From: Prochlorococcus marinus str. NATL2A
GTDB taxonomy: Bacteria; Cyanobacteriota; Cyanobacteriia; PCC-6307; Cyanobiaceae
NCBI RefSeq assembly: GCF_000012465.1
Contig: NC_007335.2
Span: 870,001-902,000 of the forward strand
Reading direction: 5' to 3'
DNA length: 32,000 nucleotides
Shown here: piece after piece, positions 21,648-27,263 of the stretch
Layout: each line of letters starts with the position of its first letter
Numbering within the stretch: position 1 is the stretch's first letter
Notes under the pieces: model-generated
Databases searched by the model: none
The model's input: the letters and a program-made list of their open reading frames with translations, nothing else
Told to the model about the DNA's origin: nothing
Translations under genes and position numbers: made by a program

Positions 21648-21833
21648 TTATCCAAGATAATTACAATATAAAACCCCATCATTTATTACATTATCATCAT
21701 CAACCTCTAACCATTCTTTGTATTCATCATACAGAGCTTCCCTGTTTTCACCATTCAAATTATTCAATCGTTTAAGTGATGCGTTTAGCATCACTTCTAC
21801 TGCGTTTAAAGCTCCAGATTGCCTAGCAGACAT
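21648..21833 (-). CDS. Hypothetical 61-aa protein, paralogue of the ORF at 22078..22257
   Basis: This ORF is on the track. It shares the core xxEVxxNxxLKRxxxLxGxxxxALxxExKEWxxxxxxxxxxxxVLYxN with the divergent neighbour. Confidence 0.6.
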   Translation of the reverse strand: MSARQSGALNAVEVMLNASLKRLNNLNGENREALYDEYKEWLEVDDDNVINDGVLYCNYLG

Positions 21834-22077
21834 AGAATAAATGAAGATTTAAATTAAATATTAGATCATGTAATACTTTTTTTCAGTTTCATTTATTACA
21901 GAATTCAGAATTTGACTAGTTTACGTAAAAAAATTTCTAAATAATTGAACAAATTTTGATTAATGTAGATGTATACATATAATGAGATTCATTTCATAGA
22001 GGTTTTAACTTATACGGGATTTACTAATTAACAGATGCTAGTAGAGATAATAGTATAAATTTAACTCATTAATTTAG

Positions 22078-22257
22078 ATGTCTAACACAAACATTCTAGG
22101 AAGTTGTGAAGTCACAATTAACTCTGCACTTAAGAGAATTTCTCAACTCGAAGGCAAAGACAAACAAGCTCTAAAGAGTGAGTTTAAAGAGTGGATAAAT
22201 GCAATTGAAAGTATAGAAAAAAACTATGATGTTCTTTACATAAATAAAATCATTTGA
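22078..22257 (+). CDS. Hypothetical 59-aa protein, paralogue of the ORF at 21648..21833; not on the supplied ORF track
   Basis: I translated this by hand from the ATG at 22078 to the TGA at 22255-22257: MSNTNILGSCEVTINSALKRISQLEGKDKQALKSEFKEWINAIESIEKNYDVLYINKII. It aligns with the 61-aa ORF with one 2-aa gap. Confidence 0.6.
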   Translation: MSNTNILGSCEVTINSALKRISQLEGKDKQALKSEFKEWINAIESIEKNYDVLYINKII

Positions 22258-22261
22258 TCAT

Positions 22262-22468
22262 TTATGCACGAGGATGTAAATCTGGATATCTACTGTTTTC
22301 GTCTTTTATTCTATTTGGATTTTCACGATCTGAACTTCTGGCAGCGTTAAAAATAACTAAAAAAGGTATGAATATTGCGAAGAAATAAAAATGCAAGAGG
22401 ACTAAATCCCATGGAGCACCTGTACTTCCGTAATCTGGAAAAAACAAAGCGGTAGCAAAAGGAAGCAT
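22262..22468 (-). CDS. Hypothetical 68-aa membrane protein
   Basis: It has one strong hydrophobic helix (WDLVLLHFYFFAIFIPFLVIFNAA) and a charged C-terminal tail. It lies 51 nt downstream of a 26-aa ORF on the same strand. Confidence 0.55.
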   Translation of the reverse strand: MLPFATALFFPDYGSTGAPWDLVLLHFYFFAIFIPFLVIFNAARSSDRENPNRIKDENSRYPDLHPRA

Positions 22469-22519
22469 TTTGATCCAATTTCTGATATCAACATAGCCAG
22501 ATTCGCTATCAAGCGTGGG

Positions 22520-22600
22520 TTACTTTTTTGACCAGGACTTAATTAAAAGCTGCAACTCTCTTATGCGTTTCTCTGCTGCTTCAATCTTTTCTGACTTCAT
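22520..22600 (-). CDS. Candidate 26-aa helical micro-protein
   Basis: Hand translation gives MKSEKIEAAEKRIRELQLLIKSWSKK, from the ATG at 22600 to the TAA at 22520-22522. It sits directly upstream of the 68-aa membrane ORF. The only support is the ORF and its position. Confidence 0.3.
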   Translation of the reverse strand: MKSEKIEAAEKRIRELQLLIKSWSKK

Positions 22601-22796
22601 TTTAGAATCTCAAATAAGCAGAACATATCCAAATGAACTGTACTGCGCGGTGTTAATAACCGTAAGAGAGTGATTAAATCCTAATAATTAAACTAAATAT
22701 TTGCTGTATGTAATAAGTTCAAACAACATACTAAAGCTTTGCACAAAAATAATTAACGAACTATATTAAAATCGTAAATATTTAATTCTATAAAGG

Positions 22797-23012
22797 ATGA
22801 AGTACATAACAGAGAGCATAAAAAATATAAAAAACCTTTTACCCTATTTACTGTTAATAGCTATATATTTCTTTTTTGTTAATCTTGAGGCACGGAAGGA
22901 TAACGAAACTATCAGAATAAACGAGAATGAAGTTAAGTTGATAGAAGAAAAATCAAGCGAAAAAAATAAACAACAAAGAATAAAAATCCCAGTTATTCCA
23001 TATAAACAATAA
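22797..23012 (+). CDS. Hypothetical 71-aa single-pass membrane protein
   Basis: It has an N-terminal hydrophobic helix (LLPYLLLIAIYFFFV) followed by a Lys/Glu-rich tail. Confidence 0.45.
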   Translation: MKYITESIKNIKNLLPYLLLIAIYFFFVNLEARKDNETIRINENEVKLIEEKSSEKNKQQRIKIPVIPYKQ

Positions 23013-23013
23013 A

Positions 23014-23127
23014 TTAATACCTAATATTTATTTTAGAAGTCCTTGCTTTAAATAAATTGGCTTGTCTTTGAGCAGCCCTATCTAGCTGTTTTTTAATTTC
23101 TAAGCAGTGCTCGCAGTTGCATGTCAT
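23014..23127 (-). CDS. Candidate 37-aa protein with an N-terminal CxCxxC motif
   Basis: Hand translation gives MTCNCEHCLEIKKQLDRAAQRQANLFKARTSKINIRY. Its stop lies 1 nt from the stop of the convergent 71-aa ORF. Confidence 0.3.
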   Translation of the reverse strand: MTCNCEHCLEIKKQLDRAAQRQANLFKARTSKINIRY

Positions 23128-23327
23128 TTTAGAAAATAAATAAAGAAGGTTTTAAGTGAGAAGGTAAATAAATGAAAAGCGAAAATGATTGAGAAGTTTA
23201 AAACTAACTAATTTTATGATAAATTTAACAAGAAATTAGAAAATTTCAAGTTGATTTTTTGAATAAAAGTAAAGTCTGATATTAGCTTTGTATGTGATTT
23301 AGTTGAATCTAATCCTTAGAGAATGAT

Positions 23328-23462
23328 TTAGTGATCATTGGAACCACGTTCGGCATCAATCGACTTCTCATAATAAAGGTCGAGAGTTGAGTTTAGTTCA
23401 GCTAATAAATATGTTATGCGTTCGTCCTTTTGATTTAAATCTTCTTGATTGATTAGTTTCAT
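23328..23462 (-). CDS. Candidate 44-aa acidic protein
   Basis: Hand translation gives MKLINQEDLNQKDERITYLLAELNSTLDLYYEKSIDAERGSNDH, from the ATG at 23462 to the TAA at 23328-23330. Confidence 0.3.
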   Translation of the reverse strand: MKLINQEDLNQKDERITYLLAELNSTLDLYYEKSIDAERGSNDH

Positions 23463-23736
23463 ATTTATATGAGTAAGTAAGGTACTCAGGAATGATTGGA
23501 ATTAATTTGAAGTACATGATTAGATAAAGCTTCAGATATAATCTGACTTTAAATAACCAGTGTTTTGAAATATTTAGTTAATTATTGGGGATTGAGAACT
23601 GAAGTGTGAATAAAGCTTGTTCGGTTTACAACCAGTCGGATTCTTCAGGATTACCAAATTTTAATAATGAATGTTTATATTTTTAAAAACTCCATTACCA
23701 ATATTTATAAGTGATCTAAAATTAAAAATCTATCAG

Positions 23737-23934
23737 ATGTCAATGAAAAGAAAATTATTTAACATCGATAAAAACACTCCATTTTCACTTATAGGTCTGG
23801 AAAAAAGAGCTGCACTTGCTATTCAGAACCATTTTCGATTGAGCAATTATCAAATGCTAGTACTAAGTTGGATAAAGGGTCTATGGACAGGTATTTTGCT
23901 TTCTCTAGTGGTTCATTATTTTATAAGTCATTAA
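23737..23934 (+). CDS. Hypothetical 65-aa protein with a C-terminal transmembrane helix
   Basis: The track ORF is 23671..23934. I prefer the internal ATG at 23737 (MSMKRKLFNIDKN...) because the upstream 22 codons are low-complexity AT-rich sequence. The C-terminal helix is WIKGLWTGILLSLVVHYFI. Confidence 0.4.
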   Translation: MSMKRKLFNIDKNTPFSLIGLEKRAALAIQNHFRLSNYQMLVLSWIKGLWTGILLSLVVHYFISH

Positions 23935-24077
23935 ACTCATGGATTTTTGCCATTTAATTAAAAATACTAATATATTTCCTTATAAAAAGTTCAACATCTT
24001 GGCAGGTTATAAAGTAGGTTTTCTATAGGAATTAATTCGATGTTCTATTTTTAAAAAGAAGATTATAAATCTTACTT

Positions 24078-24332
24078 TTATTCAGATGTTAACTGAACTT
24101 CCTTTCCCAAAATATTATCGTCTGTATTATCTAAATCATGAATCTCAAAATCATCTGTTAAAAATGTTTTTTTTGATTCAGCTGATTGGCTTTCTAAGGT
24201 TGTAAGATATGTTTTACCTATTTTTCTTTTATTTGTATAATACATACCTTGAATATAATTTTTATTTTCGGTAAATCTCATCAAAAATAATTTTAGATTT
24301 GAATAAGTGAAATTTTTAAAATTCTTAAACAT
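24078..24332 (-). CDS. Hypothetical 84-aa protein
   Basis: Only the ORF supports this call. It has a basic N-terminus and an acidic C-terminus, and I recognised no motif. Confidence 0.4.
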   Translation of the reverse strand: MFKNFKNFTYSNLKLFLMRFTENKNYIQGMYYTNKRKIGKTYLTTLESQSAESKKTFLTDDFEIHDLDNTDDNILGKEVQLTSE

Positions 24333-24772
24333 AAAAAAACTGATATATATTTATTATGGCTAAGCTAATTATTTAAACTGAATGAGATTAGTAGTGCATT
24401 CCGAACTTTTTTGTCTTTCTATACTGTATTTATAAACTACGATAAAATTAAAAAAGCTACAAATCGGTAAATGTTCACGCATATAACGATCATTTTTAAA
24501 TTAACATACTACTTTTATTTGATAGGTAGCAAAAAATACAAATTACCTTATAAGAAATTAATTTTAACTTCTTATGGTTTGTAAAGACATTAATCAAATA
24601 TTAATATCCTAAATATTGCTTGATAATTGGTGTGGTATGAGTCATGTTCAATTTAAATAACAACAAGTAAAAATGATATATAACTCACTCTACTAGTCAA
24701 TAATTGAGAGTAGATAATACCGAACAGTGAAAACACGCATTTATATGTATCTGTTCTTATAGTTGTAAGAAC

Positions 24773-24937
24773 ATGATAGAAACAGTTTTTAAAAATCAAG
24801 TCTTAATGACTTTTGTAATTGCAAGTATTTGGATAATCCCAGGTATACTATTCACATTTGCAACGAATCGCAAATACAAAAATCGACAAATTGAAAGGCA
24901 GATTAAAAAGGTAGCTAAATTATATCCTCAGCAATGA
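24773..24937 (+). CDS. Candidate 54-aa single-pass membrane protein; not on the supplied ORF track
   Basis: Hand translation gives MIETVFKNQVLMTFVIASIWIIPGILFTFATNRKYKNRQIERQIKKVAKLYPQQ. It has a clear 20-residue hydrophobic helix followed by a basic tail. Confidence 0.45.
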   Translation: MIETVFKNQVLMTFVIASIWIIPGILFTFATNRKYKNRQIERQIKKVAKLYPQQ

Positions 24938-24981
24938 TTTAAATGTATCGTAATCCAGCAAATTCTTAGTTGCTTTAAGAT

Positions 24982-25038
24982 TTATTTTTTATTTTTTTCG
25001 TTATTATTTACTGGACGAACAGGCTTAGGTAGAAGCAT
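24982..25038 (-). CDS. Micro-ORF, 18 aa (MLLPKPVRPVNNNEKNKK), copy A
   Basis: I translated this by hand. Its first 10 residues are identical to copy B at 25612..25671, although 6 of those 10 codons differ, all synonymously. It lies 76 nt downstream of the 51-aa ORF on the same strand. Confidence 0.6.
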   Translation of the reverse strand: MLLPKPVRPVNNNEKNKK

Positions 25039-25114
25039 AAGAGAAAAATGTAGCTAATCTTTTTTAACCATGATCGATATAGGAGTCTGCATTTAATGAT
25101 ACGATTTTCTATTT

Positions 25115-25270
25115 TTAGCTTTTAGTTGTCTTTTCTATAACTTTTTGGAGTTCAGCTCTTGAAAGAGTAGCTTCAATTTGAGCCAAAACTTGCTGTAGTT
25201 CGGCAGTTTTATTCAATGACGTCTCAGCCATAGATCTAAGCTTTTGAAGTTCTTTAGAGGCAGTTTTCAT
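25115..25270 (-). CDS. Hypothetical 51-aa helical protein, cassette copy A
   Basis: Hand translation gives MKTASKELQKLRSMAETSLNKTAELQQVLAQIEATLSRAELQKVIEKTTKS. By my manual alignment, about 30 of 51 positions are identical to the 52-aa ORF at 25760..25918. Confidence 0.6.
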   Translation of the reverse strand: MKTASKELQKLRSMAETSLNKTAELQQVLAQIEATLSRAELQKVIEKTTKS

Positions 25271-25521
25271 AGATAAAATGAAAAGATTGATTTTTTCCTA
25301 GAGAAAGTACAGATAATTAGCGAAAAAATTAATAGTGACAACACACGAACAAATTTGCCCTAGATTTTCATGATGTCAATAGATTTGATTGTGAACTGTT
25401 AATAAATCAATGGGTGTATGAATTTTCTATTAAGTTTTTTATTTATATCTATATTTCTGTTTTAAAAAATATAAGGAATATATAACCTTTTACTTAAATT
25501 GATTTATTGAGCATAAAAAAA

Positions 25522-25553
25522 AGAACAAAGGTATTCATTGATACCTATGTTCT
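25522..25553 (-). terminator. Rho-independent terminator-like hairpin downstream of cassette copy B
   Basis: AGAACAAAGGTAT (25522-25534), the loop TCATTG, then ATACCTATGTTCT (25541-25553). This makes a 13-bp stem with one mismatch. It is flanked by an A8 run on the plus strand (25514-25521), which reads as a U-run after the hairpin on the minus strand. It lies 58 nt downstream of the micro-ORF stop. Confidence 0.65.
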
Positions 25554-25611
25554 TTTAATAACAAACAATAAAATAATAATTAAGAATTAATTAATTAAAT
25601 AATGATCTTAG

Positions 25612-25671
25612 CTAGCTGTCTTTACCTTTCTTTTCAGCATCAACAGGTCTAACTGGCTTAGGCAATAGCAT
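25612..25671 (-). CDS. Micro-ORF, 19 aa (MLLPKPVRPVDAEKKGKDS), copy B
   Basis: I translated this by hand. See copy A. It lies 88 nt downstream of the 52-aa ORF and is followed by a terminator hairpin. Confidence 0.6.
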   Translation of the reverse strand: MLLPKPVRPVDAEKKGKDS

Positions 25672-25759
25672 GATAAAAATCCAATCTATATACTTATTTA
25701 TAGGTGGTTTTCAAAATACGTAAATAAGAATTTAAAGTTTGAAACTTCTTGACATAAGC

Positions 25760-25918
25760 CTACCTCCTTTTTAAGGACTTCTCAGTCACCTTTTGCGTTT
25801 CCTTTCTTGAGAGCGTTGCCTCCAATCTCGCTAGCGCTTGTTGTAGTTGAGCAGTTTTATCTGTTGATCCCTCAGCTTTAGAGAGTAGCTTCTGAATTTC
25901 TTGTGATGTATTTATCAT
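25760..25918 (-). CDS. Hypothetical 52-aa helical protein, cassette copy B
   Basis: Hand translation gives MINTSQEIQKLLSKAEGSTDKTAQLQQALARLEATLSRKETQKVTEKSLKRR. It is a paralogue of the ORF at 25115..25270. Confidence 0.6.
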   Translation of the reverse strand: MINTSQEIQKLLSKAEGSTDKTAQLQQALARLEATLSRKETQKVTEKSLKRR

Positions 25919-26054
25919 AACTGAATGAAAATAGCAGTTGAGTCTGCATGTTTGATTAAAATAAAGAAACCAAGACAGTCATTTGCCTACGAAAAGCTAG
26001 GATTTAGAGGATCATTAAAGATTCCATTAATGATTCTTAATGGAGAGAATATCT

Positions 26055-26261
26055 ATGACAGAAGATTGGAAGCCAGTAGATTCTCAAGTCTTAGTAGACG
26101 CATGGGATGAAATTAAGGACTGTGCTGAAGGTATACAAAAAGATTTAGCTTGCCCAGACGAGACTATTTCAAAAATGCTGCGGTCAGTCGCTGAAACATT
26201 TGATAACACTGTCGAAGATATTCTTGATAAGGCTGAAGAGGATTGGGAAGAAGATAAATAG
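26055..26261 (+). CDS. Hypothetical 68-aa highly acidic protein
   Basis: The track ORF is 26040..26261. I prefer the ATG at 26055 because GGAGAG lies 8-13 nt upstream of it. The sequence is MTEDWKPVDSQVLVDAWDEIKDCAEG...AEEDWEEDK. Confidence 0.5.
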   Translation: MTEDWKPVDSQVLVDAWDEIKDCAEGIQKDLACPDETISKMLRSVAETFDNTVEDILDKAEEDWEEDK

Positions 26262-26276
26262 ATGTATTATTGACAT

Positions 26277-26420
26277 ATGAATCCAGATTTCTTTCAATCT
26301 CCTGACCCTCTAACTCATATGGGCCAATGGAAAACGATAATTGGCTTGTTCATAGTTTTATTTGCAACTTTTGTAGGAGTCGAAATTAGGATTGGTAATG
26401 AAGATGAAGAGACAAAATAA
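26277..26420 (+). CDS. Candidate 47-aa single-pass membrane protein; not on the supplied ORF track
   Basis: Hand translation gives MNPDFFQSPDPLTHMGQWKTIIGLFIVLFATFVGVEIRIGNEDEETK. It starts 15 nt after the stop of the acidic ORF. Confidence 0.4.
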   Translation: MNPDFFQSPDPLTHMGQWKTIIGLFIVLFATFVGVEIRIGNEDEETK

Positions 26421-26559
26421 AAGTTAATGTCTCAGTATAATATTTGGCCTTAACAATATATTTAAAGCTTAAATATAAATTTGATTTTTAAAATGTACTA
26501 AATACAATAATTCTATTTTAATATTCATATATTCATAGATTTAAATTTAAATAAATCCT

Positions 26560-27102
26560 ATGCCACCATGGTTAACTCAACTTAGCTCAGTTCAGAGAAA
26601 AGAATCAAAATTAGACTCTTCAAGATGGCTTCAACTAGCCACAATTGGAATAGATAATAATCCCAGAGTAAGAACAGTGGTTTTTAGAGGATGGAGTAAA
26701 TCCTATGAAATGGAAATATATACTGACAAAAGAAGTCAAAAATATCATGAATTAAATTTGAACAATAACGTAGAAATATGCTGGCTTTTTTCAAGATCAA
26801 AATGTCAATTCAGGTTTAGAGGAACTTCAACAATTGAATTAGATAAATACAACCTTCTACATTGGGAAAAACTAAGTGAACAATCTAGATTAATGTGGAG
26901 TTGGCCAACTCCAGGTAATCAATTTAATCTAGAAAAAACTAATGATTTTTCTGTCAAATCAATTAAAGAGTTATCAAATAATTTCACTGTATTAAAGATT
27001 AAAATCAACCATGTTGACCAATTGCTTATTCGTAAACCTGTTCATAAAAGAAGAAGGTGGATTCGTGCTAATGACTGGAAAGAAGAAAGTATAAACCCTT
27101 AA
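26560..27102 (+). CDS. Pyridoxamine 5'-phosphate oxidase-related FMN-binding protein (Alr4036-like family)
   Basis: PPWLTQL...RWLQLATIGIDNNPRVRTVVFRGW...EICWLF...QFRFRG follows the pattern of the PNPOx-like split-barrel family. Confidence 0.7.
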   Translation: MPPWLTQLSSVQRKESKLDSSRWLQLATIGIDNNPRVRTVVFRGWSKSYEMEIYTDKRSQKYHELNLNNNVEICWLFSRSKCQFRFRGTSTIELDKYNLLHWEKLSEQSRLMWSWPTPGNQFNLEKTNDFSVKSIKELSNNFTVLKIKINHVDQLLIRKPVHKRRRWIRANDWKEESINP

Positions 27103-27116
27103 ATAATTGAGGATGA

Positions 27117-27140
27117 CGAAGCTTACTGTTGGGGAAGCTT
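27117..27140 (+). terminator. Hairpin 15 nt downstream of the PNPOx-like gene (weak terminator candidate)
   Basis: GAAGCTT (27117-27123), a 10-nt loop, then AAGCTTC (27134-27140). The stem is a perfect 7 bp, but only a poor T-tract follows. Confidence 0.35.
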
Positions 27141-27263
27141 CATTATGTTCCGATCACCCTCTGTGTATAAATAGCAATGTTTTTATATAATGGCAAGTTC
27201 ATTTGTAAATCAATTTTCAAGAGAGAAGTTGAAATGGAGGTTAATAAAATTTATATTTTATTC

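Follow-up and report, generated by a model that had tools for sequence, protein, structure and literature searches.

A putative 19-residue microprotein gene under strong coding selection in a duplicated small-gene cluster of NATL2A-like Prochlorococcus

Several small proteins with regulatory roles have been characterised in cyanobacteria, among them SliP4, AtpTheta, AcnSP, CP12, NirP1 and PirA (Kraus and Hess 2024, PMC11848123). Here we describe microB, a 19-residue open reading frame (ORF) located in a cluster of small minus-strand genes within a stretch of 32,000 nucleotides (nt) of Prochlorococcus marinus NATL2A, which is referred to below as the window. In several respects microB resembles the SliP4-type proteins, which are short, non-enzymatic, often restricted to a lineage, missed by annotation and thought to bind larger proteins. 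It shares no sequence similarity with them, however, and is limited to one Prochlorococcus lineage. Among the conserved proteins of cyanobacteria, PetN, with 29 residues, has been called the shortest (Kraus and Hess 2024, PMC11848123); microB is shorter than PetN, but is found in one clade only.

Peptide-coding transcripts have been described in Prochlorococcus before, since the 'non-coding' RNAs Yfr6 and Yfr9 contain ORFs of 33 and 44 codons, respectively (Steglich et al. 2008, PMC2518516). Both are small, separately transcribed RNAs with a conserved short ORF, as microB appears to be, although they differ from it in sequence and locus. In Yfr6 and Yfr9, sequence conservation extends over the whole gene and secondary structures are predicted (Steglich et al. 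2008, PMC2518516), whereas at microB only the peptide, the promoter and the terminator are conserved and the 3' untranslated region (UTR) varies. For yfr6 and yfr14 of NATL2A, Table S2 of Lott et al. (2020, PMC7368042) records a match to the Downstream-peptide motif of Rfam. In this respect microB is again different, as it gave no Rfam match, including to the Downstream-peptide/glutamine riboswitch family RF01704. The MgtL leader of Salmonella resembles microB in that the ORF is very short, contains several conserved proline codons and is followed by a terminator. Unlike MgtL, microB is conserved over the whole peptide, no alternative RNA structures were found for it, and the gene downstream has its own predicted promoter.

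The Yfr108 probe (Lott et al. 2020, PMC7368042, Table S1) anchors the window to positions ~870,000-901,999 of NATL2A in the same orientation. A preliminary description of this DNA had reported two adjacent minus-strand units, each with a helical protein gene followed by a micro-ORF, and the ORF list together with direct reading of the sequence placed the four ORFs exactly where that description had put them:

25760..25918, minus strand, helix B, gene for a predicted single-helix protein of 52 amino acids (aa); in the ORF list; identical to ABU23897.1
25612..25671, minus strand, microB, putative 19-aa microprotein gene MLLPKPVRPVDAEKKGKDS; read directly from the sequence
25115..25270, minus strand, helix A, gene for a predicted single-helix protein of 51 aa; in the ORF list; identical to ABU23896.1/WP_011295121.1
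24982..25038, minus strand, microA, 18-aa paralogue of microB MLLPKPVRPVNNNEKNKK; read directly from the sequence

The spacers between helix gene and micro-ORF measured 88 nt in unit B and 76 nt in unit A, again as described.

To establish how widely microB occurs, two sets of loci were used. A profile of the helix family, independent of the micro-ORF pattern, pulled ten loci from Prochlorococcus genomes, and the microB ORF was present in all ten, about 90 nt downstream of the first helix gene. Scanning of metagenome contigs with the micro-ORF N-terminal pattern alone yielded 108 stretches, in which the ORF was 17-22 aa long except in two cases cut by contig ends. The C-terminal half, D[SA]EKKGK[DE]x, which was free of the search pattern, proved almost invariant across these metagenome matches, and the family consensus is MLLPKPVRPVDSEKKGKDN. 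In 92 of 101 testable pattern-found loci a helix ORF ends ~88-93 nt upstream of microB, the other nine being without helix B, and in 78 of 91 the microB start is followed, after ~275-415 nt, by the start of a helix A-type ORF, apart from two outliers. The co-occurrence of helix gene and micro-ORF that the preliminary description had proposed to test holds in most loci, although, as shown below, not for the divergent helix relatives that stand alone or for unit A, in which microA has mostly been lost.

Selection on microB acts at the level of the amino acid sequence. For 11 sequences found independently of the micro-ORF, the Nei-Gojobori ratio of nonsynonymous to synonymous substitutions (dN/dS) was 0.026 with a dS of ~1.0, while the same calculation in the shifted frames returned 18.7 and 4.8. 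Across ~100 unique sequences, the entropy of the three codon positions in codons 11-18, which the search pattern does not fix, was 0.17, 0.12 and 0.99, and the five other frames are for the most part closed. With synonymous changes close to saturation, it is not the nucleotide sequence as such that has been conserved, which argues against a base-pairing RNA. By comparison, dN/dS across loci was ~0.10 for helix A and ~0.20 for helix B. The conservation of microB is about that of AhpC, the neighbouring peroxiredoxin, and the PNPOx-like neighbour is only 50-70% identical. Thus microB shows frame and length conservation, purifying selection and transcription (see below), the generic hallmarks of a microprotein gene. 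Judged from its sequence, it is a genuine coding gene, more constrained than any other member of the cluster, which bears out the earlier view that these are selected genes rather than random AT-rich ORFs.

The deduced peptide is hydrophilic, with eight charged residues out of 19, three prolines among the first nine residues, a charged tail and no hydrophobic span. The prolines at positions 4, 6 and 9 are invariant in microB and are also found in microA. No annotation or earlier description of microB was found in the databases and literature searched, including a full-text search for the peptide string, and literature searches on NATL2A small proteins and on Prochlorococcus ribosome profiling turned up nothing relevant, nor any ribosome-profiling or proteomic data for NATL2A. 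The preliminary description had recognised neither family; this stands for the micro-ORFs, for which we found no annotation, but not for the helix ORFs, which are already annotated as hypothetical proteins.

The 88-nt spacer upstream of microB is more conserved than the flanking coding sequence. Three blocks within it, TCAAGAAGTTTCAAAC, TTATTTACGT and CCTATAAAT, are at least 90% identical across 100 unique loci and can be read as a putative promoter; beyond the ORF lies an intrinsic terminator:

25672..25759, minus strand, intergenic block, putative microB promoter; conserved blocks with fixed spacing
25752-25737, minus strand, upstream element TCAAGAAGTTTCAAAC; contains the palindrome AAGTTT-C-AAACTT
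25724-25719, minus strand, -35-like TTTACG; 16-nt spacer to the -10
25702-25697, minus strand, -10-like TATAAA(T); predicted start at ~25690
25515..25555, minus strand, intrinsic terminator of microB; hairpin and T-run

The spacing of the blocks is 21 nt in 101 of 103 loci, and TTTACG and TATAAA are 16 nt apart in 99 of 101. Between TATAAA and the ATG there are 22 to 27 nt, indels occurring only downstream of the -10. Where helix B is missing, as in L013 and L046, both the promoter blocks and microB are kept. The spacer thus has conserved promoter geometry, and for this reason microB looks separately transcribed and appears to be a transcription unit of its own.

Other readings of the spacer were considered and set aside. 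In NATL2A GUUUCAAA and UUUGAAAAC can pair, but the pairing is not kept in other loci, and RNAalifold found no consensus structure in the spacer, with 0 pairs; RNAz values reported for the same stretch are z = 0.03 and P = 4e-6 (Lott et al. 2020, PMC7368042). The spacer does not read as coding sequence either, as the frame is not conserved (for example in L002) and there is no three-base periodicity. With regard to possible regulators, an HLR1/RpaB-like motif in TTTACGTATTTTGAAAAC matches four of six bases per half-site when compared with published examples and was rejected, and the NtcA, CRP-like and Pho-box consensus sequences did not fit the upstream element by eye. We found no second good copy of AAGAAGTTTCAAAC in the window, the 12 matches with at most three mismatches being set against 11.4 expected.

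Downstream of microB, the NATL2A sequence folds into the terminator hairpin that the preliminary description had proposed: a 15-bp stem with one mismatch, at ~25555-25520, is followed by U8, the T-run extending to 25515. A simple terminator scanner missed this hairpin because of the mismatch in its stem. Of 106 loci, 88 have a comparable hairpin with a T-run of at least five, usually 75-100 nt beyond the microB stop codon, and compensatory changes occur in nine of its 12 stem pairs, so that the terminator shows covariation. By contrast, the ~60 nt between the stop codon and the terminator are poorly conserved, and no conserved anti-terminator was seen there.

Transcription across microB, which the preliminary description had proposed to check, has been recorded in natural populations. 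Contig 6069 of a Red Sea metatranscriptome corresponds to NATL2A 895571-895750 on the minus strand, with a length of 179 nt and 36 reads (Lott et al. 2020, PMC7368042, Table S2), and in window coordinates (25572-25751) it covers microB. One antisense read contig has been reported for the plus strand, at 895636-895733 (Lott et al. 2020, PMC7368042). Our promoter scan gave no candidate on the opposite strand near microB.

Both micro-ORFs begin with the same ten residues, MLLPKPVRPV, as previously noted, and the six codons that differ within this segment are all synonymous, including the two-base changes CGT/AGA and CTA/TTG. When the segment was back-translated with degenerate codons, only these two sites in the window matched, and none of 100 shuffles did. 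The helix proteins are likewise related: the earlier manual alignment had counted about 30 identical positions out of 51, and BLASTP aligned helix A and helix B with 31 of 50 residues identical (62%; E = 3e-17). Taken at the level of sequence, the tandem duplication of a helix-plus-micro unit is real.

The two micro-ORFs have fared differently since. microA was present in 15 of 75 testable loci and absent in 60, the full unit A of helix gene and micro-ORF occurring in NATL2A-like sequences. Identical copies of microA were found in L024, L033, L034 and L079, and variants such as MLLPKPIRPLNNDDKNKNKL elsewhere; its start codon is TTG in L001 and ATT in L015. Where present, microA has a dN/dS of ~0.2 and is more variable than microB. 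It is without the -35 and spacer blocks of the microB promoter and is therefore probably expressed by read-through from helix A.

Both helix genes have promoter-like sequences of their own:

25351..25379, minus strand, promoter-like region of helix A; putative TTGACA (25379-25374), 17-nt spacer and AAATTT (25356-25351)
25928..25979, minus strand, conserved upstream region of helix B, common to a divergent acidic-protein gene; putative promoter roles
25979-25959, minus strand, upstream block of helix B, ACTGTCTTGGTTTCTT(C/T)ATTT; at least 90% identity in 83 unique loci
25936-25928, minus strand, extended -10-like TGCTA(A/T)TTT of helix B (TGCTAATTT), near the start codon; at least 90% identity in 83 unique loci

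For helix A, the multi-locus alignment shows that this promoter-like region is conserved: 87 of 89 loci have TTGACA ~105-110 nt before the start of the gene, and 58 have GGCAA 14 nt further on.

Both helix genes are already deposited for P. marinus NATL2A as 'conserved hypothetical protein', the match of helix B being 100%. AlphaFold2, run on a 16-sequence alignment, modelled helix B as one continuous helix from residue 2 to residue 51 (mean predicted local distance difference test score 80.6). The helix proteins are probably single long amphipathic helices that would act by coiled-coil-type binding. The exact helix A sequence occurs on 65 contigs, and most of its N-terminal part, MKTASKELQKLRSMAE, is conserved at 90% or more. 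Constraint is lowest in helix B, which is absent in ~9% of loci, where microB is intact. In Prochlorococcus sp. AG-402-B05 (L001:3001-3156) an in-frame TAG interrupts helix B at codon 16 while the adjacent microB and helix A are intact, so that this locus looks, from its sequence, like a natural helix B knock-out.

Some close relatives (P0002, P0004, P0006-P0008, P0011 and P0016) have lost the helix B stop codon, giving a 74-aa product that crosses the conserved promoter block and stops at a TAA inside the -10 box. On one contig (P0173) a single 107-aa ORF joins helix B, the spacer and microB.

A profile search of 1.84 billion representative proteins recovered 129 relatives of the helix proteins, nearly all of 33-107 aa, one weak match of 685 aa being the exception, and none of the 129 is annotated. 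Searches of the helix proteins against Pfam, NCBIfam, PADLOC, PHROGs and the PDB gave only sub-threshold noise. A homologue of the helix proteins (P0005) bears the JGI name DUF1192, but neither helix protein matched that family at E values up to 10; their best Pfam matches, to other families, were 15-17 bits and under the cut-offs. A divergent subfamily (MNKTQEQLEKLRKVAE...KVLAQIEALMS) was found on very AT-rich contigs with 21-27% guanine plus cytosine (GC), and no micro-ORF was seen near these genes on contigs of only 500-1450 nt. In L120 a promoter-like sequence, TTGACT...TAAATA, akin to that of helix A, precedes the divergent helix gene. On the L120 contig (22% GC), which carries this gene, (T)AATGTAAAAAAT occurs three times within positions 120-640, each time before a promoter-like or small-ORF region.

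Considering these results, we think it somewhat more probable than otherwise that the locus is a lineage-specific cluster of separately transcribed small-protein genes in which microB is a trans-acting binding microprotein. In this scheme a unit consisting of a 51-aa helix gene and a micro-ORF was duplicated in tandem in NATL2A-like, low-light Prochlorococcus, after which unit A mostly lost its micro-ORF and the micro-ORF of unit B became the most constrained element. Helix B would be expressed from its own promoter near the start codon and helix A from a TTGACA-type promoter, with microA, a paralogue in decay, still following helix A in a few of the lineages. The microB unit would comprise its own promoter, with the operator-like element, the -35, the 16-nt spacer and the -10, and the intrinsic terminator, giving a predicted messenger RNA of ~175 nt. 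Its translation product would be a hydrophilic, Pro/Lys-rich peptide, and it is the sequence of this peptide, and not that of the RNA, that selection preserves. Since MLLPKPVRPV is common to both paralogues, it is probably an extended docking motif, the charged tail differing between the two. Through binding, microB would modulate its target, presumably some conserved protein or complex of the cell that is larger than itself, and the timing of microB production would be set by a transcription factor at the invariant upstream element. It is also possible, though we consider it doubtful, that microB, as a hydrophilic, proline-rich regulator in one of the most abundant low-light phototroph lineages of the ocean, docks via MLLPKPVRPV on a core machine (the ribosome, for example, or a complex of photosynthesis or metabolism), with a dedicated operator, TCAAGAAGTTTCAAAC, switching it, and that it represents the shortest independently transcribed, constrained protein-coding gene described in cyanobacteria.

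A number of observations weigh against this explanation. A simple sigma-70 scanner did not call the microB promoter, which has TATAAA without the final T, and the invariant spacer block could belong to a 5' leader instead of an operator. Contig 6069 begins at 25751, ~60 nt upstream of the predicted microB start, and at least some transcripts must therefore begin before that start, perhaps at the edge of the invariant block, or arise by read-through out of helix B; the exact start site is accordingly given here as a prediction. No Shine-Dalgarno-like sequence was found at microB, a feature that is commonly missing in Prochlorococcus, and the case for translation is built on sequence evidence. 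The argument for action in trans is one of exclusion, and an AlphaFold2 model of the natural read-through fusion P0173, in which the peptide part is disordered, was uninformative.

The first of the alternatives concerns the relationship between the peptide and the helix protein. The preliminary description had favoured a functional pair, and an obligate interaction, in which the helix protein neutralises or delivers the peptide as in toxin/antidote or peptide/chaperone systems, would fit the conserved adjacency and order (92 of 101 and ten of ten loci), the joint copying of both genes in the duplication, and the combination of a basic, proline-rich peptide with an amphipathic helix. Against it, microA has been lost from 60 of 75 loci while helix A remains under purifying selection, helix-only relatives exist, and microB stays intact where helix B, the least constrained gene, is interrupted or absent. 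The fixed spacing is explained by promoter geometry, and the promoter geometry of microB itself argues against an obligate partner. The toxin/antidote version found no positive support: the hydrophilic peptide is unlike type I toxins, and neither PADLOC, PHROG nor phage homologues were detected. A phage origin was also rejected, the pattern scan of viral contigs giving 0 matches and tblastn with helix A and a 21-aa microB variant giving none in 50,697 phage records. We therefore consider an obligate pair unlikely. A role for microB in cis is, in our judgement, more doubtful still. As a leader ORF, microB would control read-through of the terminator into helix A by means of its proline codons or stalling of the nascent chain, and a short ORF followed by a strong terminator and then by helix A on the same strand is what such a leader would look like; proline codons 4, 6 and 9 are invariant and shared with microA, and other bacteria have leader peptides rich in proline, MgtL being one. 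Selection, however, acts on the amino acids of the whole peptide including the C-terminal tail, unlike in codon-sensing leaders, and the terminator lies 75-100 nt beyond the stop codon, across a variable stretch without a conserved anti-terminator. Helix A has its own predicted TTGACA promoter-like sequence in 87 of 89 loci. Moreover, stalling peptides act through residues near the peptidyl-transferase centre, yet the part conserved between the paralogues is the N-terminus and not the C-terminus.

The remaining alternative, that the micro-ORF is untranslated and the conserved stretch is a small regulatory RNA or an element acting at the DNA level, we regard as very improbable. An apparent promoter of its own, a length of ~175 nt and a terminator are all consistent with a small RNA, and it was a screen for non-coding RNAs that picked up the transcript. 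Nevertheless, variation at third codon positions is close to saturation and the first two positions are fixed, whereas a base-pairing seed would be expected to show the reverse; no secondary structure is conserved except that of the terminator; the 3' UTR is not conserved; and Rfam gave no match at the gathering score, with only noise at E values up to 10.

Known small RNAs of Prochlorococcus were also compared with the locus. Yfr13, the only RNA of Steglich et al. (2008, PMC2518516) with NATL homologues, looks unrelated by eye in its published 60-nt fragment. The primers for Yfr106 and Yfr107 are absent from the window. The Yfr108 probe matches elsewhere, at 27109-27161 on the plus strand, immediately downstream of the PNPOx-like gene (26560-27102); the match has one mismatch.

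The cluster is part of the core chromosome, in which synteny from cobU and spoU to ahpC is conserved. The order cobU, spoU, several small ORFs, the minus-strand genes helix A, microB and helix B, and then the acidic-protein gene is kept; beyond helix B lie this divergent gene for a very acidic 68/73-aa protein, a 47-aa membrane ORF, the PNPOx-like gene and ahpC. The acidic protein (MTEDWKPVDSQVLVDAWDEIKD...EEDWEEDK; window 26040-26261, plus strand, with a likely true start at 26055) adjoins helix B divergently, and the invariant block at 25979-25959 is upstream of both genes. It was present in 93 of the retrieved loci at ~80-100% identity; its homologues are confined to the same lineage and it gave no family match. 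A second pair of small paralogues is located at 21648-21833 (minus strand, 61 aa) and 22078-22257 (plus strand, 59 aa). The two are ~36-45% identical with the common pattern ...ALKR...L.G....AL..E.KEW..., each matches the locus of the other in tblastn, and both are conserved in ~25 related loci. Between spoU and the PNPOx-like gene (window 21650-26450) there are about a dozen conserved ORFs of fewer than 90 aa. Related genomes largely preserve their order, and five ORFs tested from this small-protein gene neighbourhood gave no match in Pfam.

Gene callers and pan-genome catalogues generally ignore ORFs under ~30-50 aa. According to Steglich et al. (2008, PMC2518516), one Prochlorococcus pan-genome study dropped those hypothetical ORFs of <50 aa that were found in a single genome only. 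While the helix genes are known hypotheticals, microB, on the sequence evidence, belongs to the general class of overlooked bacterial microprotein genes, and it is an example of the micro-genes that are retained in streamlined Prochlorococcus genomes and probably escape standard annotation. The locus is also tractable, as it offers a promoter-ORF-terminator unit together with natural 'knock-outs' of the paralogue. The operator-like element could expose a regulon in an organism with very few transcription factors.

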